DNA of 50,759 bases from the sequence record OR896827.1. One strand, 5' to 3'. Shown here piece after piece: positions 27,123 to 38,901 of this stretch. Under the pieces are notes generated by a model. It searched no databases, was not told where the DNA came from, and saw only the letters and a program-made list of their open reading frames with translations. The translations under genes and the position numbers were made by a program. Source of the DNA: Escherichia phage MikeNSara. Each line of letters begins with the position of its first letter. The stretch's first letter is position 1.

Positions 27123-29120
27123 ATGATTCCAAATATCGAAAAACAAATATCAGCGTTAGGCGAGGCAGTAATAAAAAGCATCCAAGAGCGATTCACGGTT
27201 GGCAATATAGTGCCTTATCCTTATCAGTGCGTTGCGTATGCCGAGATCGCAAAGCGCATGAAAAACTATGAGCATCCTTTCTTTGTTAAGGCTTCTGTGT
27301 CGGCTGGCAAAACATTGATGTTTGCGATGGTTGCGGCGCAATGCCGCAAAATGGGATTGAAAATGATGGTCCTTGCTCGCCAGGCTGAAATTGTTGATCA
27401 GGATTCGGAAGAGATCAGCAATCTTGGCGTGCCAAACTCAATCTATTGCGCCGGACTGAAAACAAAAAGCGCATACTTTCCGATCGTAGTCGGTTCTGAG
27501 GGCACTGTAGTAAACGGATTGTTTAAGTCTTTAGGTGATTATGTTCCGCACGTTATCGGTATTGATGAATGTCACCAGGTGGATTGGGAGGATCTCGCGG
27601 ACGCGATAGAAAATAATGAATCTTACCAGCAGATGACCACTAAGAAGGATTTGCCTGTACTGATTGGAGAAGAACAGCAATTTGATTCCAATGGCGATCC
27701 AATGTTCGGAACAGGGCGCACACAGTACACGGTAATAATCATGGAAATGATGCGCAGGTGTCGCGAGGCATACGGGCACGAATTGCGAATATTCGGTATG
27801 ACTGGATCTGAATTTCGCGGCGTGGTTCCAATACTGGTTGAAGATAAGAACAAAAAGGGATTCTGGCGTGAGCAGGTGACTAACATAGACACAAACTACT
27901 TAATCAAATTCGGTTCTGTAGTGCCAACAAATTTCGGCGACGTAGGCGACCTGGGGTATGACCTTTCAGAGTTCGAAGCCAGTAGCGAGGATGGCGTTTC
28001 AGACTTTGACGCTAAAACATTGCGCAAGATGGAAGAAAAAATCCATCAAGACGCAACAATGACACAGAAAATCATGGCTAAAGTCCATGAGATATGCAAA
28101 GACAGGAACGGAGTTTTAGTTACATGCGCAGGGGAAAGACACTGCAAGGAGGCCGCCGCCGCACTGCCGCCAGGCGTTGAATACAGGATCATAACTGGCA
28201 AGACTGGAGATAATCAGCGTAAAGAGTGGCTGAGGGAGGCATACGAGGGAAAAGTAAAATACATCTTCCAGGTACAGGCGCTTACCACTGGCGTTAACGT
28301 TCCGTTTTGGGATACTTCTGTAATACTGAGAAAGATAGGATCTCTAACATTGCTTATCCAGCTTTTGGGGCGCGGTATGCGACTGCTTAAGCAATGGCAC
28401 ATTGAGCAGGGATTCAAGAAAAAAGACCATCTTGTATTGGATTTTGCCGGTACTATGGATGAGTTAGGGGATTTGTATTTCGATCCAATCCTTGAGCAAG
28501 CGCAATTCCAAAAGAGATTTACAAACGGGAAAGAGCCTAAGACTTGTCCGATATGTGGAACGCTAAACAGCTTTTACGCTCGCCGATGTATGCACGTAGA
28601 CGATAACGGGAAGAGATGCGAGCATTTTTGGACTTACAGAATTTGCGAGGACCAGGTAGATCCGAGAACGAAAAAGATAATCAAGCGCGGTTGCGGAACA
28701 AAAAACGACGTAGTGGCGAGAGTATGCCGTTGTTGCGATATTTCTCTTGTCGATCCTAACGAGAAGTTAAGCGGCAAGCACTACACCAAAAACGATTGGT
28801 GCAACGTTAAATCTTTCCGCGTTGATATGACGAAAAACCAGAAAGGAATTGTTTTTTGCTATGAGCTTGAGGCCAACGGCGACACGTTCAAGGCATACGA
28901 AAGATTTTTCCCTGAGTCAGAAAGCAACATTTGCCGTACGATATGGAGAAAAATAGCATTGCAGCACATACCGGATCGCAAGATTGCTGGTATGGTGGCG
29001 AGCTATAGAAATGCGCGCAAAATAATGTCATACGCTCATCACATCATGCCTCCTGTACGCGTAACGCATCGCAAAAACGGCAAAGGTGAGGATAACATTG
29101 CAAAACGGGAGTTTGTTTAA
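27123..29120 (+). CDS. superfamily 2 DNA helicase (DExH) with C-terminal zinc fingers
   Basis: Walker A-like SAGKT, DExH box (GIDECHQ), C-terminal Cys clusters (CPICG, CRCC); preceded by motif-type promoter. Confidence 0.8.
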   Translation: MIPNIEKQISALGEAVIKSIQERFTVGNIVPYPYQCVAYAEIAKRMKNYEHPFFVKASVSAGKTLMFAMVAAQCRKMGLKMMVLARQAEIVDQDSEEISNLGVPNSIYCAGLKTKSAYFPIVVGSEGTVVNGLFKSLGDYVPHVIGIDECHQVDWEDLADAIENNESYQQMTTKKDLPVLIGEEQQFDSNGDPMFGTGRTQYTVIIMEMMRRCREAYGHELRIFGMTGSEFRGVVPILVEDKNKKGFWREQVTNIDTNYLIKFGSVVPTNFGDVGDLGYDLSEFEASSEDGVSDFDAKTLRKMEEKIHQDATMTQKIMAKVHEICKDRNGVLVTCAGERHCKEAAAALPPGVEYRIITGKTGDNQRKEWLREAYEGKVKYIFQVQALTTGVNVPFWDTSVILRKIGSLTLLIQLLGRGMRLLKQWHIEQGFKKKDHLVLDFAGTMDELGDLYFDPILEQAQFQKRFTNGKEPKTCPICGTLNSFYARRCMHVDDNGKRCEHFWTYRICEDQVDPRTKKIIKRGCGTKNDVVARVCRCCDISLVDPNEKLSGKHYTKNDWCNVKSFRVDMTKNQKGIVFCYELEANGDTFKAYERFFPESESNICRTIWRKIALQHIPDRKIAGMVASYRNARKIMSYAHHIMPPVRVTHRKNGKGEDNIAKREFV

Positions 29121-29539
29121 TGGCTATAACTGATAAAGGCGATTATCTTGAGTTTTACGAAAGGGATCCAACCGACACGAGAAGGGAAGTTAATCACCAG
29201 ATAGATAGTTTTCAGTGGTTGACTTATGCTCATCCTTATTTGCTGGCGTGGCATACGGTAAACGAGAATGAGAAGTCTAAAGCAACGGCGATGATTGATC
29301 AGCAGTCCGGCTTGGTTAAGGGAGTAAGCGATTTCATCATCCTGATTGGTTTAAACGGAAAATACCCCTTTGCAGCGATTGAGATCAAACGAGTGAATAA
29401 ATCAGGCAAGGGGAAAGCATCACCAGTCAGCGATGAACAAAAGGCTTTTTTGCGTCGCGTTCGCAGCTTAGGAGGATTCGCTGCGGTAGCCTACGGATTC
29501 AATCAGTTTAAGTTGGCTATTGAATACATGCTTAAATAG
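29120..29539 (+). CDS. VRR-NUC domain nuclease
   Basis: TAATG overlap with helicase; PD-(D/E)XK core GVSDFIILIG...AIEIK and SDEQKAFL typical of VRR-NUC. Confidence 0.65.
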   Translation: MAITDKGDYLEFYERDPTDTRREVNHQIDSFQWLTYAHPYLLAWHTVNENEKSKATAMIDQQSGLVKGVSDFIILIGLNGKYPFAAIEIKRVNKSGKGKASPVSDEQKAFLRRVRSLGGFAAVAYGFNQFKLAIEYMLK

Positions 29540-29579
29540 CACTTTTTGTTAAAACTGGCGCGATGGATTGCGCCATAAT
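29536..29579 (+). promoter_or_regulatory. motif-type promoter cassette
   Basis: ATAGCACTTTTTGTTAAAAC, 18-bp GC-palindromic spacer, CATAAT; overlaps VRR-NUC stop; Dam ATG 29619 downstream. Confidence 0.55.
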
Positions 29580-29618
29580 TCAATAACACGAGATGGCTTT
29601 TAATAGCGGAGAAATGAA

Positions 29619-30344
29619 ATGGCTAAAGATATTTTAGATAAAGACACCCATGACGCATTCGTTAGCTTTGAGCAGTTGGAGAGAGAAACGTTTATAGGGA
29701 ATGCCCTTGCAATTGGAGGCCATTACCATGCAGTAAAGCCAAATCAATATTATAAGGTAAGCGGCAACCGATACGCTGGAAGCACCACGCCTGACGTTGT
29801 GCGCGATATGTGGAGCACGCCTCAAGAGATCGTGGAGTGGATGGAATCAGAATTTGGTGAATACGATCTCGACGCGGCAGCAAGCCAGGAAAACGCAGTT
29901 TGCGAGAAGTTCTATAGCAAGGAAACAAACTGCTTAAAGCGTTGGTGGGGTAGCAACAAGCACGTATGGCTTAACCCGCCGTACAGCAACCCAACTCCAT
30001 TTATCAAGAAAGCAATTGAGCAAATGGAGCACAACAACCAAATTGATGTTTTGTTGCCAGCCGACAACTCTACAGCATGGTTTTATGAGGCGCAGAAAAA
30101 CGCGGCTGAAATCATCTGGATCACTGGTGAGGTTTACGAAGAGGGTGGAGTAGAATACTCCCGCACCGGAAGAATTGCCTTTGTGTCTGGATTGACTGGT
30201 GAGCCTGTGCAGGGAAACAACAAGGGAAGCGTGATTTTTGTCATGCGCAAACTTAAAGAAGGCGAGGAGCAGAAAACGCGATACGTTAAGATCAGCGATA
30301 TTTGCCCTTCTGTAACCGAACGTCGCGCACGCAAACGGAGCTAA
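29619..30344 (+). CDS. dam: DNA N6-adenine methyltransferase (phage Dam family)
   Basis: WSTPQ, DLDAAAS and catalytic NPPYS motifs of phage Dam-type MTases; RBS GGAG; motif promoter upstream. Confidence 0.8.
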   Translation: MAKDILDKDTHDAFVSFEQLERETFIGNALAIGGHYHAVKPNQYYKVSGNRYAGSTTPDVVRDMWSTPQEIVEWMESEFGEYDLDAAASQENAVCEKFYSKETNCLKRWWGSNKHVWLNPPYSNPTPFIKKAIEQMEHNNQIDVLLPADNSTAWFYEAQKNAAEIIWITGEVYEEGGVEYSRTGRIAFVSGLTGEPVQGNNKGSVIFVMRKLKEGEEQKTRYVKISDICPSVTERRARKRS

Positions 30345-30348
30345 CACG

Positions 30349-30606
30349 ATGGAAAAAGAGAGAAGCGTTTATTTAAATGAAACTGGCGAGTGGTTGTTAT
30401 TTCGCGCTATGGTGTGCGATGCACTTGATAAAAACCCTAACGTGAAAAAGATGATTGATTGCGATCCGTGGGAATTTTCAAGCGCATTAGATATGAGCTT
30501 TGAGGAGACAAGAAAACTCCCGCTTGAAAAATGGCACGAACAAATCAGAAATGACATGCAAGAGTTTGTTGATTCGTGGAATTTTCAGCACGGAATGATC
30601 CACTAA
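30349..30606 (+). CDS. hypothetical protein
   Basis: ORF with RBS ACGGAG; stop abuts 20-bp motif. Confidence 0.5.
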   Translation: MEKERSVYLNETGEWLLFRAMVCDALDKNPNVKKMIDCDPWEFSSALDMSFEETRKLPLEKWHEQIRNDMQEFVDSWNFQHGMIH

Positions 30607-30649
30607 TAGCACTTTTTGTTAAAACGCCCGGCCTAGTGTCGGGCATAAT
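30606..30649 (+). promoter_or_regulatory. motif-type promoter cassette
   Basis: ATAGCACTTTTTGTTAAAAC, 18-bp spacer gcccggcctagtgtcggg, CATAAT; the same spacer occurs inverted at 33829..33846. Confidence 0.55.
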
Positions 30650-30681
30650 TATTTCAACGAAGCAAACATGAGGAAATAAAA

Positions 30682-30861
30682 ATGGTGGTATTCGATAAAC
30701 GCGCTTTTAATCTTGCTCAAGAAGTAGCAAAAGGTTCAGTAGAGGGCGGATCAAAGGAAGGATTCCAGTTTGATTGGGGAATCGCGATGTTCTTACTGAA
30801 AGTTGCATACGGTCACGCGCCAATTGAACAAGCGGAGGCATATTATAAGCATGAAGGTTGA
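30682..30861 (+). CDS. hypothetical small protein (59 aa)
   Basis: Not in ORF track (<60 aa); ATG 30682 with RBS GAGGA, ~30 nt downstream of a motif-type promoter. Confidence 0.4.
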   Translation: MVVFDKRAFNLAQEVAKGSVEGGSKEGFQFDWGIAMFLLKVAYGHAPIEQAEAYYKHEG

Positions 30862-31093
30862 GCAAGGAAGAGATGCGGTATGGAATCACGCTAAAGAATG
30901 CGGTATTGCCGACGATATAAAGAAGATCGCGCAATACTTTGATATTGCAGATGTGAGCATAATTAGCGGCGACAAGATGACTTTCCTCAAGGAAAGGCCG
31001 CGAAAAATGGTAAGAGTTCCAGCAGTTCCAACAAAAATTGATTTCAAAGAGGCAATGGCTAAAATCCGAGAGCCTCGCAAATATTATAAATGA
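30851..31093 (+). CDS. hypothetical protein
   Basis: ORF overlapping previous small gene; track start was TTG 30803, ATG 30851 preferred. Confidence 0.4.
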   Translation: MKVEQGRDAVWNHAKECGIADDIKKIAQYFDIADVSIISGDKMTFLKERPRKMVRVPAVPTKIDFKEAMAKIREPRKYYK

Positions 31094-31187
31094 GGATAGT
31101 TATCATGTGGCGCTTGTTTGTTCTACCGTTACCCGTTATCATCGCTGTTACAGTTATGTACCATATAGTAATGAGATAGGTAGCAGA

Positions 31188-32303
31188 ATGAAAAATGTAA
31201 AAATTACAGATGAGCAATTCAAGATCGAACGGGCGGCGGGTAAGACATATAAACAGATCGCTCAAGAGTACGGGATGAATGTGAGAAGCGTCGAGCGTCG
31301 CGCTGCGCGTCTTGCAAAACAAGGACAGGTGTCAACCATTGGAGCGCCTGGTTTTGGTGTTCATGGTGAGTCAGTAATGACAGACAAAGAAGGCAATATA
31401 ATCCTCAAGTGGACAAAAACCAGCAAGGACAAAGAGCAATTAGAAGCATTGATGCGCGCAGCAATGGAGGCGTTTAGCGAGGAAGTGCCGCGATTAGATC
31501 CAGTTCCATTGCAGGAGCGTAACTATAATGAAACGCTTTCATTGTATCCGATCTTTGACATGCACTTAGGAGCTATGGCCCATAAGCACGAATGCGGAGA
31601 AAATTGGGATACAGCTACGGCTGAGCGCGTTATGAATAACTTTATCGACTATGCTTTGATGTGCGCACCGGACAGCGAAAAGGCTGTTATCCTGATTGGT
31701 GGCGATATGCTGCATAGCGACGGCCTGGAGGCTGTGACACCTGCAAGCGGTCACGTACTTGATCAAGATAGCCGATATGCAAAATTGGTTTACGTTGCAA
31801 TCCGCGCAATGCGTCGCGCAATTAATAAAATGCTGTTAAAGCATAAACATGTTGAGGTCCAGATCGTAGAGGGCAATCACGACCAATCAGGAATGATTTG
31901 GCTACGCGCAGCAATGGCGGCAGCATATGAGAACGAGCCGCGCGTTTACGTTGATGTTTCTCCTCGCGTTGTTCACCACACGCAATACGGAAAAACTTTC
32001 CTTGCGTACCATCACGGGCACACAGTGCGCAAACCTGAGACTTTGCTAATGATGTGCGCGTCAGATTGGCGGGAGGACTTCGGAAACTCAAAAACGATGT
32101 ATGCGCACGTAGGGCACTGGCATCACCAGACAGTGACGGAAACGTCGCTTGGGATCGTGGAGGTACATAGCACCCTGGCGGCAAAAGACGCATACGCCGC
32201 GCGAGGTGGCTGGAGATCTCGACGCCGTGCGGCGGTTATCATTTACGACAAAGAGCATGGAGAAGTCGGGCGATTTGTTCACTATCCAGAAATGATGAAT
32301 TGA
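31188..32303 (+). CDS. HTH-containing calcineurin-like metallophosphoesterase
   Basis: N-terminal HTH (KTYKQIAQEYGMNVRSVERRAARLAKQG) fused to phosphoesterase motifs DMHLG, GGDMLHSD, GNHD, HHGH, GHWHH; start moved from TTG 31038 to ATG 31188. Confidence 0.6.
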   Translation: MKNVKITDEQFKIERAAGKTYKQIAQEYGMNVRSVERRAARLAKQGQVSTIGAPGFGVHGESVMTDKEGNIILKWTKTSKDKEQLEALMRAAMEAFSEEVPRLDPVPLQERNYNETLSLYPIFDMHLGAMAHKHECGENWDTATAERVMNNFIDYALMCAPDSEKAVILIGGDMLHSDGLEAVTPASGHVLDQDSRYAKLVYVAIRAMRRAINKMLLKHKHVEVQIVEGNHDQSGMIWLRAAMAAAYENEPRVYVDVSPRVVHHTQYGKTFLAYHHGHTVRKPETLLMMCASDWREDFGNSKTMYAHVGHWHHQTVTETSLGIVEVHSTLAAKDAYAARGGWRSRRRAAVIIYDKEHGEVGRFVHYPEMMN

Positions 32304-32350
32304 TGAATTTTTATTTAAATCAATGACAAATTAAATCAAAAACTTGCAAA

Positions 32351-32378
32351 GGGGCGGCGTTTGTCGCCTCTTTTTTTT
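32351..32378 (+). terminator. intrinsic terminator before lysis cassette
   Basis: GC-rich hairpin followed by T8. Confidence 0.6.
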
Positions 32379-32448
32379 GTTTAATTTTTTACCATGTGCG
32401 TTTATCATGCGGTCAATATATTGACTTTAATTAATATGGAGAATAAAA

Positions 32449-32664
32449 ATGAAAGATTTTATTAACGCAGCTACCGCCGGATCTGGCGGTTCATCTATCG
32501 CAAGCGCCGCTACAGGGCAGTTAACCATTGCTATTGCCAGTTTTGTTTTAATGGCTGCATTCGGTGCGTGGGGCGCTTACCTTCGCTGGCGTGATAGTAA
32601 AAAATTCCACGAGGCGATCGAAAAAGGTGATATTCAAAAAGCTATTGAGATCAGGGGCAAGTAA
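32449..32664 (+). CDS. holin (pinholin-like, two TMDs)
   Basis: 71 aa; weakly hydrophobic G/A/S-rich TMD1, hydrophobic TMD2, charged C-terminus; immediately upstream of SAR endolysin. Confidence 0.7.
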
Positions 32665-33155
32665 TGAGCATAAAGAACAGGGTAGCGGCGGCGGCCTTTG
32701 GCGTTGCGGTTGCCTTGACTTCTCCACTTCTTGAAGAGATCGAAGGGGTAAGATACAAGCCATACAAAGATATTGCGGGAGTATGGACGGTTTGCGCAGG
32801 AATCACCGGACCAGATGTTATCCTGGGGAAAACGTACACTAAAAAAGAGTGTGATGATTTGTTGGCTAAGCATATCCATGTTGCTAAAAAGGAAGTTGAC
32901 AAGCAGGTTAAGGTTGACATTCCTGATAGTATGCGTGCAGCAATGTACTCATTCACTTATAATGCAGGCGTGGGAGCTTTCAGAAATTCAACAATGCTGA
33001 AACTCATCAACCAGGGGAAATTAAACGAGGCTTGCGATCAGCTTTATCGTTGGACGTATTACCATAACCCCAAAACAGGAAGGCGCGAGAAGTCTAAAGG
33101 CTTACTTAACAGGCGCAAGGTCGAATACAAATATTGCACAATGGATCTGAAATGA
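32664..33155 (+). CDS. SAR endolysin (GH24 lysozyme, phage 21 R / P1 Lyz type)
   Basis: N-terminal Ala/Gly-rich signal-anchor-release segment then [23 protein letters not shown] (E-D-T catalytic triad) and [10 protein letters not shown]; close resemblance to phage 21 R recalled from memory. Confidence 0.85.
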
Positions 33156-33547
33156 TGAGGAAATTTTTACTTACACCAATCGCAATGGCGGTGATCTTGT
33201 CTGGATGTTCAAGCGTTACGCCACTGACCGGATTAATCGGCAGTAAGCCGGAAATCACAGCACAGGCTGGCGCGGAGAACGTGAGGCAGGCAGTTGGCAT
33301 TACAGCAAAGCAGGACGCCAGCACAAAACAGAAAACCACAATAAAGGAATCTGCGGTTGACAAGGTGGACACGTCCAGCAAGAAGCATTTCACAACATCA
33401 ACCATTCAGGCCAATACCATCAAGGCAGACAAAATTCAGGTCGTGCAGGGTAATAACGGCAGATGGTACGATCCAATAATCATATGCGTGGTTGTGTTAA
33501 TTGTGCTGATTTGTCTTTACTGGAGAGAAAAGAAAAAGGAGGCTTAA
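33152..33547 (+). CDS. unimolecular spanin (u-spanin, T1 gp11-like)
   Basis: N-terminal lipoprotein signal with lipobox LSGC plus C-terminal transmembrane helix ([16 protein letters not shown]) and basic tail; overlaps endolysin stop (ATGATG); last lysis gene. Confidence 0.7.
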
Positions 33548-33564
33548 TGCCTCCTTTATTTTTA
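33530..33564. terminator. bidirectional terminator between spanin gene and convergent leftward early operon
   Basis: AGGAGGC-TTAAT-GCCTCCT with A-rich upstream and T-rich downstream flanks; overlaps spanin stop. Confidence 0.7.
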
Positions 33565-33786
33565 TGCGTCGGGCCACATATGAGTTTCGTTTGTTGGCTT
33601 GTTCGATTCGTCGTACCGCCTTACTTCAATGCTGCAAGTGTCGCCGTACATTTCTGCAATCTTGCGCTCATTTTCAACCGCCGATTGCTCACTCCATCCA
33701 AAATCCCTGTCGTAAATTGTCGGTATTTCAGCAGAAGATCCGTTGTCATGATTATATACGCGAACTACTAAAAACTTGCTGGACAT
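33562..33786 (-). CDS. hypothetical protein
   Basis: Minus-strand ORF ~35 nt downstream of motif-type promoter 33823..33866. Confidence 0.5.
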   Translation of the reverse strand: MSSKFLVVRVYNHDNGSSAEIPTIYDRDFGWSEQSAVENERKIAEMYGDTCSIEVRRYDESNKPTNETHMWPDA

Positions 33787-33822
33787 AATTTTACCTTTTG
33801 GTTGTTTCGTTTCGATGAAACA

Positions 33823-33866
33823 AATATACCCGACACTAGGCCGGGCGTTTTAACAAAAAATGCTAT
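33823..33866 (-). promoter_or_regulatory. motif-type promoter cassette (leftward)
   Basis: 20-mer 33847..33866 (one A/G change), 18-bp spacer identical to that of 30606..30649 cassette, -10 TATATT; gene ATG 33786 downstream. Confidence 0.55.
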
Positions 33867-34057
33867 TCCATACGCTTTACCGTAACCAGTAATACACCAT
33901 CATCATTGCATAAAACATGTTCAGTGGTGCTAAAAGCGCGCATATCTGAATAAAGTAGCGTAAGTAAAGCATGAATAAAATCCTCATGTGATATTGAATT
34001 TACGGCGCAGTGCTTCAAGATCTTGTCTATTAGCTTTTGCCTGGAACAATTCATCAT
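33863..34057 (-). CDS. hypothetical protein (uncertain)
   Basis: ORF whose stop is the TAG inside the 20-bp motif, as for other genes; GGGAG upstream of ATG; overlaps 3' end of 33984..34379 by 74 nt. Confidence 0.3.
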   Translation of the reverse strand: MMNCSRQKLIDKILKHCAVNSISHEDFIHALLTLLYSDMRAFSTTEHVLCNDDGVLLVTVKRME

Positions 34058-34379
34058 CGCCCATCTCCCCTATTCTCGCCATATCCCTGATCCAGTCGTT
34101 GCGCATACCATCCAGGCTATACAATTCGAATCCGAAAGGCCGCTTTGATGATCCTTTGGACCAGTATTTTCCGCAGACCCCATCTATATAACCAGCCGTC
34201 ATCATTCTTGCGCAAAATTCCTTAGATGCAAGGCTGGCGAACATTCGCGGCGTAAGTCCGGCGGCCCGCGCGAGCCGCTCGCATTCTCTATGCTGATAGA
34301 TAAATTTGGCTATGTGCTGCCTGTTAAACCAGTCGTATGACTCACACCATTTATACAGATCAAGCAAAAACATAATCAT
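33984..34379 (-). CDS. hypothetical protein
   Basis: ATGA overlap with upstream ATPase gene stop. Confidence 0.5.
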   Translation of the reverse strand: MIMFLLDLYKWCESYDWFNRQHIAKFIYQHRECERLARAAGLTPRMFASLASKEFCARMMTAGYIDGVCGKYWSKGSSKRPFGFELYSLDGMRNDWIRDMARIGEMGDDELFQAKANRQDLEALRRKFNIT

Positions 34380-35956
34380 CCCAGCAGTATTGGATTGACA
34401 AAAATAACACCATTAATCACGCAAACATAATTTCTTTCTTCCAGCATTGGAAGCAAGTGCCCTTCTATCCTCTTCATTACGCCAGCTTGACCAACGAAAG
34501 GTTTTACCTTTCTCGCTGATTCGTACAGGGCGCGAATATTCAGAATCCCTTTATTAGCCTTGCCGTGTCTAGTGATCAATTCAATCAATTTGCCCATTTC
34601 AGCATCATCACCAGCATAACCAGAAGCATTGGCGGCGCTAATGTATGTTTTGCTCAATTCCTGAAACATGATCAGCGCCTCTTGCATTGTTTCCACGTCG
34701 ATCTCTTTCGACTTCTGCGGGTATCCAGCAGGATTAAACCAATTGCGGATAACATGCAGGACGGAAGCAAGCCTGATCACCTGTTTATCCATTTTACCCA
34801 GCGCACCGCGTAACATTGTATGAGAATACTTTCCGCCGTCTGCAAGATGCGGTTCCATATCCTGGCGAGCAATGTTGAGCACTCGCATAGCTGAACGGCT
34901 TATTTTCAGCGATATATTTGATTCGCTCATGATGTTATGCACCAATTGATAATATTGGGCCTTCAATTCAGGATCCACCGCCTCATAGGTAGAATCACCA
35001 TTTTCATCAATGAATGAGCGACGGCCTAAGAATGATTCCTCACGGACCAACAAAAAGCGCTCACTCACACCGATACCGCGCGATCCAGCGTCCATGATTC
35101 CGCTTATCGTTTCATCCTGGGCTATAACGCTCATACATCCAAGCGCGCGAAAACTCATGTTATTGTCAGCATTAGCACGGGCAATTGATACGTGACCATT
35201 ATCCCACGCCTTAAGCACTAGCTCGCTGTTAGTCTTCCTTTCGCTATTGGCATAGGTCAAGCCTAACAGGCTGTTAATACTTGTTGCTTCGTCAGATATT
35301 ACGGCAAAGTTACCTTGCTTGTTGTTGATTTTCGCCAAGCCTTCTGGAGTGGTATCTGAAACAGGGAAAGTTATATCACACATCTTTTCCAGCTTCTCCT
35401 CCAGATCCTCTTTTTCCTGGTATAGAGATTCCATATCAGCGCCTGATCTTTCGCTTTTCATCTCCTTTGCAAGACCTGCCAACTTTGCCTGTATTTTCTT
35501 TCTTTCCTTGCGGCGTTGCTCGTTGATCTTCTCAACTTCCGCAATCATCGGAGCAATAGCCATACTGTTGATCGCAGATTTACCAGTTGACGGCGGCTGG
35601 CTTGTAACGACGTAAAGCGCAGTCGGCTGATCGGTTCCGTGATAGTCAACCGTAAAGCGTCCAAGCATAGCGGCAGAAATGCAGCCGATAAAGTGCATGT
35701 AAGCCGATGATTCAGGAAATTGAACGGATCGCGCAATACTGCGTGATAACTTGCCGACAACATCAATATCATTACCAAGAGAAATAACGGGGTAGCGATC
35801 GTGACCGCTATTTACATCCTTCACGTCGCCCCAAAAGCTGGACGACTGGCGATAGCCGTTAGCCTGAATTGATACGCGAACTGGTGAAAGGTTCTGGCTT
35901 TCAGCCATAGCGATTATTTGCTGTGGAGTTAATTTGTTCGTTTCTAATGAAAACAT
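34376..35956 (-). CDS. P-loop ATPase (DUF3987-like, putative replication/helicase-associated)
   Basis: Walker A-like SQPPSTGKSA and Walker B-like FAVISDEA; 526 aa; RBS AAGGAG; motif promoter upstream. Confidence 0.5.
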   Translation of the reverse strand: MFSLETNKLTPQQIIAMAESQNLSPVRVSIQANGYRQSSSFWGDVKDVNSGHDRYPVISLGNDIDVVGKLSRSIARSVQFPESSAYMHFIGCISAAMLGRFTVDYHGTDQPTALYVVTSQPPSTGKSAINSMAIAPMIAEVEKINEQRRKERKKIQAKLAGLAKEMKSERSGADMESLYQEKEDLEEKLEKMCDITFPVSDTTPEGLAKINNKQGNFAVISDEATSINSLLGLTYANSERKTNSELVLKAWDNGHVSIARANADNNMSFRALGCMSVIAQDETISGIMDAGSRGIGVSERFLLVREESFLGRRSFIDENGDSTYEAVDPELKAQYYQLVHNIMSESNISLKISRSAMRVLNIARQDMEPHLADGGKYSHTMLRGALGKMDKQVIRLASVLHVIRNWFNPAGYPQKSKEIDVETMQEALIMFQELSKTYISAANASGYAGDDAEMGKLIELITRHGKANKGILNIRALYESARKVKPFVGQAGVMKRIEGHLLPMLEERNYVCVINGVIFVNPILLG

Positions 35957-35984
35957 TCGTTAGCTTCTCCTTTGTGGGCCGTAA

Positions 35985-36028
35985 ATTTTAACGGCCCAAT
36001 ACTACCCCGTTTTGTCAAAAAGTGCTAT
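35985..36028 (-). promoter_or_regulatory. motif-type promoter cassette (leftward, variant)
   Basis: GTTTTGTCAAAAAGTGCTAT at 36009..36028, 18-bp spacer, -10 TAAAAT; ATPase gene ATG 35956 downstream. Confidence 0.5.
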
Positions 36029-36246
36029 TTGATCCGCTCTATTGCAACCAGAAGTCGATCAGGCTGGCGGTCGCTGTAGCATTCTCCTGTAATCCCATCC
36101 TTAAACGTAAAGTAAAGCGCCTTATGATATGAAAAACCAATCAGCCAACCTACCGCCGTTTTTTTGATGGGCCTGACTATATCGCCAGGCTTGAAAGTCT
36201 TTGTGGTAGAATGCGTTACTTTGTAACGGTTTTCACTGTTTATCAC
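36025..36246 (-). CDS. hypothetical protein
   Basis: GTG start overlapping upstream stop (GTGA), RBS GAGGG; stop is TAG of motif 36009..36028. Confidence 0.45.
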   Translation of the reverse strand: MINSENRYKVTHSTTKTFKPGDIVRPIKKTAVGWLIGFSYHKALYFTFKDGITGECYSDRQPDRLLVAIERIK

Positions 36247-36629
36247 AGATATTTGCCCTCAAAAAGATAACAGCCGCCAGCAGAGAATCCGACCTCTTCA
36301 CGGTACAGGTTCCAGCGGTCGCCGCACTCATCAAAAACATAACCCGCAACGCTTCCAAGCGGTCGCCCTTTCTCGATCTGGTATCGCTTGCCCTGCTTAA
36401 AGTGCTTTTTGCACGGCATGTTATGATCTACAAACGTGCAAAGAACGGTTTTTGTGTTAATGGCGCGGTAATCATCTCGGTTTGCTGGAAGCCAGCGGCT
36501 ACCCTTAACAAGCGTCTTAACCTGGAACTCTTCCACCTCGATCACATCATTACTTCCTGCAATCTTCTGATAAACCGTTTTAAAACGTCCTTTCATCAAT
36601 ACGTTGGTTTCATTACAGATAACATTCAT
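36243..36629 (-). CDS. hypothetical protein
   Basis: RBS AAGGAG; ~30 nt downstream of motif promoter 36659..36702. Confidence 0.5.
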   Translation of the reverse strand: MNVICNETNVLMKGRFKTVYQKIAGSNDVIEVEEFQVKTLVKGSRWLPANRDDYRAINTKTVLCTFVDHNMPCKKHFKQGKRYQIEKGRPLGSVAGYVFDECGDRWNLYREEVGFSAGGCYLFEGKYL

Positions 36630-36658
36630 GATTAGATCTCCTTTGTTTGTTCGATGTG

Positions 36659-36702
36659 ATTATGCCAGGTTTTTACACCTGGCTTTTAACAAAAAGTGCT
36701 AT
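36659..36702 (-). promoter_or_regulatory. motif-type promoter cassette (leftward)
   Basis: 20-mer 36683..36702, hairpin-forming 18-bp spacer, -10 CATAAT; gene ATG 36629 downstream. Confidence 0.55.
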
Positions 36703-37409
36703 TTTGAGTTTGACTCAAAGACGGCGCGAGCAAAGCCGCGCGGAGTGAGAGAGCGGATCATCTTTGTGCGCGATGACTTGCCGCCAGTTTTGGCCCAGCC
36801 TGGATTATCTTTGTCTTCCTCTTTCGGCAGGATTAAAGCGCGTGGAGGAATAACAAAGCCGTTGCCAGTCCAGAGGCACGTTTTCTTAAAATAGCGATCC
36901 CGCGCCGGAATAATATCAGGGAAGTCGGGATGTTTATCATCTTCCGGCAGATAGCCAGCGTAATCGCACGGATGGAACGTATAATCAGGCTTTCGCCATA
37001 ACGTTGACAACTTGCCAACCGGATTTTCGATCATGTAAGGAACGCCGAAATAATCAGCTATATCAGCCGCGATCCTGCAAGTGTCGGCGGCCTCATCCTG
37101 GAACGATGGATTCTCAAGGCGTTTTTTGGCCCAATGGCGAGATCCGCTATTTGCAAGGTCAGTGCACGGCGGAAATGCCATAATAAAGTCAGGAATGCCC
37201 CATTCCTCCCAGCGCGCGCGGTGGTAAAATCTTTCATCAATCCAGACGTTAACATATTCGATATTCTCATGCTGTATGCGCACTGACTGGTAATCACCGT
37301 GATCGCCGCCGTCAGCATTAAAGCAAATGCACTTATAGCCATTATCAGCCCAATCTTTAACGGCTTTACCAGATCCATCAAATAGGGAGAATATTAAACC
37401 TTTATACAT
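36699..37409 (-). CDS. putative DNA (cytosine-5)-methyltransferase-like protein (short form)
   Basis: FSLFDGSG (motif I-like), PPCTD (PC motif), ENPVG (ENV motif); only ~236 aa; start moved to ATG 37409 with RBS GAGGT. Confidence 0.5.
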   Translation of the reverse strand: MYKGLIFSLFDGSGKAVKDWADNGYKCICFNADGGDHGDYQSVRIQHENIEYVNVWIDERFYHRARWEEWGIPDFIMAFPPCTDLANSGSRHWAKKRLENPSFQDEAADTCRIAADIADYFGVPYMIENPVGKLSTLWRKPDYTFHPCDYAGYLPEDDKHPDFPDIIPARDRYFKKTCLWTGNGFVIPPRALILPKEEDKDNPGWAKTGGKSSRTKMIRSLTPRGFARAVFESNSK

Positions 37410-37419
37410 CGTAATTACC

Positions 37420-37644
37420 TCAAAACGGAAAACAGCGCGCACAACCAGGATCGAAATCGCATCCACAATCATTAACAATCATAGTGGGATCTGCAAATAT
37501 TGCGCTTGATTCAAGATCCATATCCATATCACCTAAAGCCTCATCAAGAGTCTTAATTTTATATGCCACTTCAAGCGCCGCCTCTTTATTTAGTCCGGCA
37601 TCTTCTGCCATTTGAAGGCGTTCAAAAAATCCGTCTTGACTCAT
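37420..37644 (-). CDS. hypothetical protein
   Basis: RBS AAGGAG; acidic; C-terminal CGCDFDPGCARC cysteine cluster. Confidence 0.5.
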   Translation of the reverse strand: MSQDGFFERLQMAEDAGLNKEAALEVAYKIKTLDEALGDMDMDLESSAIFADPTMIVNDCGCDFDPGCARCFPF

Positions 37645-37757
37645 CGCATAATCTCCTTAATAACAACCAAGATAATAGCCAGGCCAGCAGCAGTAACCAA
37701 AAAGCCAGCCGCGCCAATAATCGAATAAAAAAAGAAATCAATAGCTTTATCCATCAT
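37641..37757 (-). CDS. hypothetical small membrane protein (38 aa)
   Basis: Not in ORF track; RBS GAGGTG; single hydrophobic helix; stop overlaps next ATG (ATGA). Confidence 0.35.
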   Translation of the reverse strand: MMDKAIDFFFYSIIGAAGFLVTAAGLAIILVVIKEIMR

Positions 37758-37799
37758 TTTTCACCTCATTTAAAAGGCGGCAAAACGCCGCCAGATTAA

Positions 37800-38027
37800 T
37801 TAAAGAGCGCGCCAACTTTGAATATAGAAAGCGTTTTCTTCCAGTAATTCTTTTACCTGATCTTTATTGTATTTGCGCACCTTGCCGCCTGGATGGATAC
37901 CAATAAGATAGCCGCCTTTGCCCTCGGTGATAGTGATTTGGCTAATTCCGCAGGACTTATCAAGTTTTACAGCCACGCGGTGATGAGCGTCAATAGTTGC
38001 CATAATGTTTAAAACTTTTGCTTTCAT
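37800..38027 (-). CDS. hypothetical protein
   Basis: RBS GAGGAT upstream of ATG 38027. Confidence 0.5.
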   Translation of the reverse strand: MKAKVLNIMATIDAHHRVAVKLDKSCGISQITITEGKGGYLIGIHPGGKVRKYNKDQVKELLEENAFYIQSWRAL

Positions 38028-38857: not shown

Positions 38858-38901
38858 AATATACCAATCAGAGGCGCATCGGTTTTAACAAAAAGTGCTA
38901 T
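38858..38901 (-). promoter_or_regulatory. motif-type promoter cassette (leftward)
   Basis: 20-mer 38882..38901, 18-bp spacer, -10 TATATT; gene ATG 38826 downstream. Confidence 0.5.

Follow-up and report, generated by a model that had tools for sequence, protein, structure and literature searches.

The DNA analysed here, a window of 50,759 nucleotides that is the whole stretch taken from Escherichia phage MikeNSara (OR896827.1), is very probably best explained as a Warwickvirus-type genome with two solitary DNA methyltransferases, a T1-type Dam and a minimal C5 enzyme. The source phage is a T1-like Warwickvirus (Drexlerviridae, Tempevirinae) that infects E. coli, and phages NorthRox, tiwna and FritzSarasin are ~98% identical to the window over 9 kb, with both methyltransferase genes annotated in all three. 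Two solitary enzymes of this kind are typical of the Warwickvirus-type group. Both are genuine, yet already known: dozens of almost identical Drexlerviridae genomes have the genes annotated, which leaves little that is new, and the short C5 enzyme has already been published, in the relative KarlJaspers, as a trigger of retron Ec86/Eco1. The value of the analysis therefore lies in corrections and caveats to a preliminary description made from the sequence alone. Coordinates are given in Table 1.

Table 1. Methyltransferase genes and neighbouring elements in the window
Feature	Position	Strand	Basis or remark
VRR-NUC domain protein, upstream of dam	29120..29539	+	PF08774 at 4.8e-10; no PADLOC match
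Promoter-type element of dam: ATAGCACTTTTTGTTAAAAC (29536-29555), 18-nt GC hairpin spacer, CATAAT	29536..29579	+	
T1-type phage Dam, N6-adenine DNA methyltransferase, 241 aa	29619..30344	+	Profiles, motifs, T1 homology
ATAGCACTTTTTGTTAAAAC copy overlapping the C5 stop codon	36683..36702	-	CATAAT and an SD lead from it to the start (ATG) of the following gene (36629)
Minimal C5-cytosine DNA methyltransferase ("Dcm-like"), 236 aa	36699..37409	-	Motifs, fold, homology
74-aa ORF with its end 10 nt upstream of the C5 ATG	37420..37644	-	No family match
Terminator-like element (GC-rich hairpin, then a run of T), within the unit and upstream of the C5 gene	37776..37792	-	
ATAGCACTTTTTGTTAAAAC copy closest to the C5 gene on the upstream side, same strand	38882..38901	-	~1.47 kb from the C5 gene

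The adenine methyltransferase had been described as a Dam-family enzyme with NPPYS and DLDAAAS motifs, and this reading is borne out by the translation, in which DLDAAAS occupies residues 83-89 and NPPYS residues 119-123, and by matches to PF05869 (Dam; 9.8e-62, 208 bits against a cutoff of 28.1) and to the TIGR01712 equivalog (1.1e-53, 181.1 bits against a cutoff of 97.05). Both motifs (DLDAAAS, and NPPY at 119-122) are also kept in T1 Dam, and the protein is 83% identical to the Dam-like protein of KarlJaspers (Bas06). PADLOC labels the ORF "orphan methyltransferase" (3.8e-103), and its start is preceded by the Shine-Dalgarno (SD) sequence GGAG, 7 nt before the ATG. Homology to T1 Dam indicates that the target is most likely GATC.

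A restriction endonuclease was neither found by PADLOC among the neighbouring genes nor annotated in the whole of the 98%-identical tiwna genome, in agreement with the earlier statement that the methyltransferases have no cognate restriction enzyme. The accompanying statement that no nuclease lies adjacent does not hold, as the VRR-NUC gene ends 80 bp before dam, and downstream of dam lies a gene with the annotation DNA repair exonuclease. These two are conserved T1 replication/recombination genes, arranged as they are in T1, and not restriction enzymes, and the order helicase/VRR-NUC/Dam is the same in T1, KarlJaspers, FritzSarasin and tiwna. A type III-like restriction-modification (R-M) module composed of the helicase (which has a ResIII domain), VRR-NUC and Dam was considered and rejected on the grounds of the conserved T1 order, the lack of PADLOC matches and the identity of the helicase as the replicative SF2 helicase of the family.

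A repeat search of the window yielded the 20-nt motif ATAGCACTTTTTGTTAAAAC, present in 17 copies against 0 expected, with a -10-like hexamer 17-18 nt after the copies and then an SD sequence and an ATG. The preliminary description held that each methyltransferase gene is driven by a promoter of this motif type. This is correct for dam, which has its own copy immediately upstream, but not for the C5 gene, where the copy in question sits at the 3′ end, overlaps the stop codon and serves the next gene. On the strand of the C5 gene, ~1.47 kb separates it from the nearest upstream copy, which places the C5 gene last in a multi-gene unit. The unit probably starts at that distant copy, and the 74-aa ORF is probably co-transcribed with the C5 gene. 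In a sigma70 consensus scan, the 100 bp preceding dam and those preceding the C5 gene showed no promoter, and no sigma70-like site was found on the minus strand between 37800 and 37410. A GCGCCATAAT search for a promoter element was uninformative, and a literature search on the 20-nt motif returned nothing useful.

The C5 gene begins with an ATG preceded by GAGGT and a 7-nt spacing. A 259-aa version of the ORF starting at TTG was rejected, as it overlaps the upstream ORF and is not conserved in the homologues, and the ATG has a good SD sequence. The assignment of the protein as C5-methyltransferase-like is upheld by its motifs, by its fold and by a match to phrog_757 at 2.1e-84. The motifs are FDGSG (motif I, residues 10-14), the catalytic PPC (80-82), ENPV (128-131), KK (175-176) and, at the C-terminus, IRSLTPRGFARAV (218-230); the FxGxG-like and PC motifs named earlier are thus present, and the one read as ENV is in fact ENPV. 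In 31 homologues, F10-D-G12-S13-G14, P81-C82 and E128-N129-P130(-V131) vary little or not at all. Judged from these motifs, FDGSG would bind SAM and Cys82 would act as the nucleophile, with Glu128 (ENP) and Lys175/176 completing the catalytic residues. The length of the protein had been called atypical; 236 aa is instead the norm of a very large phage family, which forms ~2,100 clusters when grouped at 50% identity and has 1,498 phage records. Neither the 236-aa nor the 259-aa version has a Pfam match at E<=1, PF00145 included, or an NCBIfam match, and the models of both collections overlook this short C5 family completely.

Sequence searches against the PDB (phmmer and the family profile) gave only marginal matches to DNMT3B and HaeIII (E 0.05-0.2), the profile match (E ~0.1) spanning motifs I-IV, and a comparison of structures was therefore needed. 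The AlphaFold2 (AF2) model of the protein (pLDDT 89.2, pTM 0.87) has DNMT3A/3B as its best Foldseek matches in the PDB (E ~1e-6), and its best structural matches are mostly DNA 5mC methyltransferases, so that the protein shows the C5-methyltransferase fold while escaping the canonical PF00145 sequence profile. In the predicted model, the Rossmann core has its seven strands, and the catalytic apparatus is retained. From strand beta7 (177-182) to the C-terminal IRSLTPRG (from 218), only ~35 residues are available as a recognition region, and these form the least confident stretch of the model, with pLDDT down to 59. No sizeable target-recognition domain was found between motifs VIII and IX of the protein, and the earlier suspicion of a reduced recognition region is supported. 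Across the 31 homologues, this segment divides the family into two variants, DNPGW and GYSxQH.

The closest functional information comes from KarlJaspers, the Dcm-like enzyme of which is equal in length to the window protein and 91% identical to it over 236/236 residues. The 22 substitutions fall mostly in residues 23-120, residues 121-236 are almost identical, C82, E128, K175 and K176 are common to both proteins, and the neighbouring genes are alike. Phage K42 is a strain of KarlJaspers with a genome 95.4% identical to the Bas06 reference, and its Dcm-like enzyme activates retron Ec86/Eco1 and is toxic together with Ec86, while K42 escapers of Ec86 carry mutations in the 711-bp dcm gene (Cell Rep 2024;43:114857). 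In the same study, the K42 enzyme placed 5mC on retron msDNA as measured by LC-MS, the signal was gone with the C82A/E128A/K175A/K176A mutant, and Dcm was encoded by 34 of 35 Ec86-sensitive phages; later literature accepts the Ec86-trigger result of that paper. Judged by homology, the window gene belongs to a family with a known Ec86 trigger, and would hence carry a cost besides possibly serving as a defence. This liability side, the triggering of retron Ec86, was absent from the preliminary description.

That no Pfam or NCBIfam model recognises the 236-aa protein would fit a protein that is not a DNA 5-methylcytosine methyltransferase at all, and that instead forms another C5 adduct (e.g. carboxymethyl), acts on RNA like DNMT2 or is catalytically dead. 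This is highly improbable given the 5mC produced by the K42 enzyme and the lack of effect of its active-site mutant, the invariance of all catalytic motifs in the family, and a majority of DNA 5mC methyltransferases among the best structural matches. A minimal C5 DNA methyltransferase remains the preferred reading.

The name "Dcm-like", in turn, rests on a CCWGG specificity that is assumed and not demonstrated. Alignment of the C5 family profile to E. coli K-12 Dcm by hhalign covered 24 columns around motif IV only, at a probability of 1.2%, and because motif IV alone aligns, CCWGG specificity is not transferable by homology. The retron study took CCWGG from the name "Dcm", its msDNA-site mutants could alternatively disturb effector contacts, and its experiments used dcm+ MG1655, with control msDNA that carried little 5mC (Cell Rep 2024;43:114857). 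That msDNA in this dcm+ host is low in 5mC until the phage enzyme is expressed suggests that host Dcm and the phage enzyme differ on msDNA. Together with the undetectable similarity to the recognition domain of E. coli Dcm, the DNMT3 enzymes as nearest folds, which read only CpG, and the two variants of the recognition segment, it speaks for an enzyme without the E. coli Dcm specificity, whose motif would be shorter or otherwise different, or which would favour hairpin or single-stranded DNA (msDNA stems, replication intermediates). We nevertheless regard this reading as rather doubtful. McrBC acts on 5mC in a purine-5mC context, and dense methylation of that kind would be expected to be restricted in mcrBC+ K-12, which supports plating of these phages. 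Defence was also abolished when the CC of the msDNA CCTGG was mutated, and the DNA of Pantoea phage AAS23, in which this gene pair also occurs, was reported by its authors to be Dam- and Dcm-methylated, on the basis of digestion with a set of restriction enzymes, MboI and EcoRII among them. A stronger version of the idea, in which the protein would represent the most compact functional design of a sequence-specific C5 DNA methyltransferase, drawing its specificity from the ~35-residue segment, perhaps with DNMT3-like dimerisation, and having a target that is not simply CCWGG (a shorter motif, or a hairpin or single-stranded preference), is unlikely. Such an enzyme would explain the methylation of retron msDNA that is largely unmethylated by host Dcm.

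In terms of function, Dam would be expressed from its motif-type phage promoter within the helicase/VRR-NUC/Dam replication module, and the C5 enzyme from the last gene of an early multi-gene unit on the minus strand. Both enzymes may then outpace host Dam and Dcm in methylating the phage DNA as it replicates. Such methylation would shield the phage from restriction enzymes that act on GATC- and CCWGG-type sites in unmethylated form, and the same methylation would expose it to methylation-sensing defences, e.g. retrons. The protective self-methylation proposed in the preliminary description is putative for either enzyme. Methylome data on these phages were looked for in the coliphage paper of Olsen 2020 and are not part of it. 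Within the window, GATC (O/E 1.05) and CCWGG (0.97) are not avoided and most 6-bp palindromes are, strongly, with 520 observed against 827 expected, 0 sites for EcoRV and 2 for EcoRI. Palindrome avoidance offers an alternative route to restriction resistance and, rather than methylation, may better explain the resistance of the close relative FritzSarasin.

Restriction avoidance visibly achieved through palindrome loss also speaks for a main role of the methyltransferases elsewhere, in phage DNA metabolism, such as the avoidance or control of host mismatch repair and SeqA binding, or the timing of transcription or packaging. Such a role is further suggested by the BASEL data, in which methyltransferase genes have no simple link to R-M resistance in Drexlerviridae, by the embedding of dam in a replication module (helicase, VRR-NUC) conserved from T1 to the window phage, and by the recurrence of the Dam and short-C5 pair in an unrelated lambdoid-type prophage and even as a single fused protein (P0258). 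It nonetheless appears somewhat unlikely, since a DNA-metabolism role has no direct support in Drexlerviridae, GATC and CCWGG sites were not enriched at recognisable regulatory positions in a shallow check, and anti-restriction is the role classically assigned to orphan phage methyltransferases, T1 Dam among them (reference cited in the AAS23 study).

Among known systems, Type II R-M systems contain the same methyltransferase classes; unlike them, the phage is without an endonuclease gene, and its two methyltransferases each stand alone, in separate transcription units. With E. coli Dcm and M.EcoRII (PF00145), the C5 enzyme has in common its chemistry and catalytic motifs I, IV and VI, and the literature gives the phage Dcm-like enzyme the E. 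coli Dcm target site; E. coli Dcm, however, has 472 aa against 236 aa, and the phage enzyme has neither a Vsr partner nor recognition-domain similarity. Its closest structural relatives are the catalytic domains of DNMT3A and DNMT3B, which have a small target-recognition domain but only ~18% identity to the phage protein; they measure ~280 aa, ~45 residues more than the phage protein, and act as DNMT3L-assisted oligomers reading CpG. Finally, T1 Dam (M.EcoT1Dam) is 66% identical to the window Dam over 218 residues, and both dam genes sit after a helicase and a VRR-NUC-like gene. T1 dam likewise has the 20-nt ATAGCACTTTTTGTTAAAAC motif at the equivalent place upstream, where the hairpin is annotated in T1 as a terminator, and the window Dam departs from T1 Dam by ordinary sequence divergence only.

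Both methyltransferases of the window are real and solitary, and the main interpretation of the preliminary description holds: each protein has family matches and neither gene has a restriction partner. The dam product matched PF05869 (Dam; 9.8e-62; 208 bits, cut-off 28.1), TIGR01712, an NCBIfam equivalog named "phage N-6-adenine-methyltransferase" (181 bits, cut-off 97), and the PADLOC "orphan methyltransferase" model (3.8e-103). The finding is already known, both genes having previously been annotated in many genomes. Positions 29000-38000 (9 kb) are 98.5-98.1% identical over their full length to the Escherichia phages NorthRox, vB_Eco_Sip, tiwna, FritzSarasin (Bas04) and tonijn (Drexlerviridae, Tempevirinae, genus Warwickvirus). 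The FritzSarasin record labels the two products "Dam-like N6-adenine methyltransferase" and "Dcm-like C5 cytosine methyltransferase", and the swan01 and SLUR29 records label the pair "dam" and "dcm".

Methyltransferase genes and associated features in the window
Feature	Coordinates	Strand	Description
VRR-NUC nuclease-fold protein	29120-29539		80 bp upstream of dam; PF08774, 4.8e-10
dam	29619-30344	+	241 aa; DLDAAAS at 83-89, NPPYS at 119-123
C5 gene	36699-37409	-	236 aa; GAGGT and 7 nt before ATG
20-nt element, start positions	6190, 9945, 27047, 29536, 30606, 33847, 36009, 36683, 38882, 39379, 40683, 42029, 42492, 43706, 44931, 45302, 48107		
Element copy at dam	29536-29555		CATAAT at 29574-29579; stop codon of VRR-NUC gene within first bases
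Element copy at C5 stop	36683-36702		overlaps the C5 gene's own stop codon; precedes next gene, ATG at 36629
Nearest element copy upstream of C5 gene	38882-38901		same strand as C5 gene
Terminator-like hairpin	37792-37776		between the 38882-38901 copy and the C5 gene

The neighbours of dam and the C5 gene were scanned by profile search, including PADLOC. The earlier statement that no nuclease is adjacent was literally wrong, though harmless, as a VRR-NUC protein is encoded just upstream of dam. The helicase preceding it carries a ResIII-type SF2 domain, and neither protein matched any PADLOC model. As the helicase/VRR-NUC/dam arrangement is a conserved T1 replication module, and the complete tiwna annotation contains nucleases of the recombination or repair type only (exonuclease VIII, VRR-NUC and DNA repair exonuclease), "orphan" is the correct term for both methyltransferases. 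In an E. coli contig (JBRAPV010000005.1, 4494-6747), a prophage region of lambdoid type (NinG, RusA, antiterminator) encodes a homologue, 248 aa long, of the short C5 enzyme and, two genes upstream of it, a PF05869 Dam. Here too no endonuclease accompanies the pair, and the combination is thus shared with an unrelated type of phage.

For the C5 gene, the conserved N-terminus and Shine-Dalgarno (SD) sequence support the 236-aa ATG start. A longer TTG start (257-259 aa in some GenBank records) was rejected, as it overlaps the upstream ORF and is unconserved among homologues; at 37410-37478 (-), several GenBank records and a 257-aa cluster representative (P0001) begin the gene further upstream, at TTG or an alternative start, which makes it overlap the ORF before it. 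The protein had no match in Pfam or NCBIfam, even at E<=1, and the matches from PDB sequence searches, DNMT3B and M.HaeIII, were only marginal and spanned motifs I-IV (E 0.05-0.2). Profile search placed it in the PHROGs family phrog_757 "DNA methyltransferase" (2.1e-84). The 90%-clustered database yielded 3,033 matches, nearly all of 225-260 aa and without Pfam domains, and an exhaustive profile search yielded 2,096 clusters at 50% identity. Short length is uniform across this very large family, and the 236 aa previously called atypical are therefore its norm. Members occur in 1,498 phage records, including Drexlerviridae, Dhillonvirus, JSE-type (~166 kb), ~135-140 kb types (e.g. FFH2), ~48-52 kb Klebsiella siphoviruses (e.g. 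KLPN1), and Campylobacter and Vibrio phages. In one relative (P0258, 563 aa) the short C5 domain is fused to a D12-class N6-adenine methyltransferase/Dam (PF02086, 2.5e-48), and another (P0255, 348 aa) carries an HNH endonuclease domain besides it, probably from an inserted homing endonuclease; in Shigella phage 1b, similarly, a split gene adjoins a homing endonuclease.

Conserved residues were read from an alignment of 31 family members, in which F10, D11, G12, S13 and G14 (motif I), N31, D33 and H37, P80, P81 and C82 (motif IV), E128, N129 and P130 (motif VI), K175, K176 and T177 (motif VIII region) and I218-R-S-L-T-P-R224 near the C-terminus are invariant or nearly so. The structure prediction that had been suggested for this protein, an AlphaFold2 model from the same alignment, was confident (mean pLDDT 89.2, pTM 0.87), with a seven-stranded alpha/beta core and a sole weak segment at about residues 201-210. 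Foldseek against the PDB placed DNMT3A/3B catalytic domains on top (E 1e-6, probability 1.0), and the modelled fold, like the catalytic motifs, is that of a C5 methyltransferase. By our own reading of the sequence, IRSLTPRGFARAV resembles the DNMT3 motif-X segment. Strand 177-182 and the C-terminal motif lie only ~35 residues apart, and the recognition region is therefore much reduced, as had been suspected. A putative recognition segment (residues ~196-206) takes two forms across the alignment, DNPGW(A/K)K in Drexlerviridae-type members and G(Y/F)SxQ(H/Y)xK in others, a sequence difference that may reflect more than one specificity among its members.

Each gene had also been described as driven by a motif-type promoter. 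A consensus sigma70 scan gave no site just upstream of dam or the C5 gene. A repeat search yielded a 20-nt element, ATAGCACTTTTTGTTAAAAC, with 17 copies at <=3 mismatches where 0 are expected. Every copy has the orientation of its flanking genes, and the element often begins at the stop codon of the gene before it. Downstream of most copies come 17-18 nt (in many cases a GC hairpin), then a -10-like hexamer (CATAAT, TATAAT, TATATT, TACATT or TATAGT), ~25-35 nt, an SD and ATG. Exact copies occur in T1, KarlJaspers (Bas06), FritzSarasin and tiwna; in T1, too, an exact copy lies upstream of dam, and the hairpin there carries a terminator annotation. As the element precedes dam but overlaps the C5 stop codon, ahead of the next gene, and the nearest copy upstream of the C5 gene lies at 38882-38901, the promoter claim holds for dam alone. 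A 74-aa ORF stops 10 nt before the C5 start. The spacing to any TTG(T/A)xA hexamer exceeds that of a standard sigma70 promoter. A phage factor may be involved; one candidate is the putative regulator that annotations of relatives place directly before the helicase gene. Two copies of the motif plus hairpin (GCCCGGCCTAGTGTCGGG), one per strand, form a 62-nt inverted repeat (30605-30666 and 33806-33867, 89% complementary). The units that they direct converge on a bidirectional terminator-like hairpin (33535-33557), past the lysis cassette.

The evidence that both enzymes are active methyltransferases is good; their protective role against restriction is inferred. In BASEL, Drexlerviridae abundantly encode such enzymes with no simple pattern tying them to RM resistance, and FritzSarasin, a close relative, is among the few highly RM-resistant members. 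In the window, neither GATC (318 observed, 304 expected) nor CCWGG (130 observed, 133 expected) is avoided, and CCSGG is depleted (5 observed, 21 expected). The count of 6-bp palindromes taken together falls far below that expected under a Markov model (520 against 827), with 22 of 64 absent, including the sites of EcoRV (GATATC, 0 against 12 expected), PstI (CTGCAG, 0 against 9.5), NcoI, SacI, KpnI, XhoI and SmaI; EcoRI sites (GAATTC) number 2 against 12 expected. Site avoidance is therefore an alternative explanation of resistance to 6-cutter systems, and may explain the reported RM resistance of FritzSarasin better than methylation.

Specificity of the short C5 enzyme for CCWGG is not secure. 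The family profile aligned to E. coli Dcm around motif IV only, with a probability of 1%. In favor of a Dcm-like target, window-type phages form plaques on mcrBC+ K-12, in which McrBC would restrict DNA with frequent purine-5mC sites. The CCWGG target in a study of retron Ec86 was borrowed from the behavior of E. coli Dcm, and msDNA of its dcm+ MG1655 controls contained little 5mC; also for a Dcm-like target, defence was lost when the CC of the msDNA CCTGG was mutated (bioRxiv 10.1101/2023.08.16.553469). On the same side, Pantoea phage AAS23 carries the same gene pair, and its authors reported Dam and Dcm methylation of its DNA by restriction analysis.

Experiments on an ortholog have already characterized the C5 enzyme as a methyltransferase that makes 5mC and triggers a retron. 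The KarlJaspers Dcm-like protein (236 aa) is 91% identical to the window protein without gaps and almost identical over residues 121-236, and the gene neighbours are shared, which makes the window gene an ortholog of the characterized enzyme. Ec86 escapers were isolated in K42, a KarlJaspers-like Drexlerviridae phage, and the 711-bp "dcm" gene was disrupted in 4/4 of them (10.1101/2023.08.16.553469, later published as Wang et al., Cell Rep 2024;43:114857). According to the preprint, K42 Dcm was toxic only with Ec86 present, the C82A/E128A/K175A/K176A mutant was inert, LC-MS detected high msDNA 5mC only with the wild-type enzyme, and 34/35 Ec86-sensitive phages encode Dcm. The window Dam is 83% identical to KarlJaspers Dam and 66% identical to that of T1, in which the order of SF2 helicase, small VRR-NUC protein and Dam is the same. 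T1 Dam, described in the 1980s and 1990 by Auer and Schweiger and by Schneider-Scherzer et al., is reportedly GATC-specific, and we infer the same specificity for the window enzyme. Retron Sen2/Eco9 has likewise been reported to be triggered by phage Dam enzymes, through msDNA methylation.
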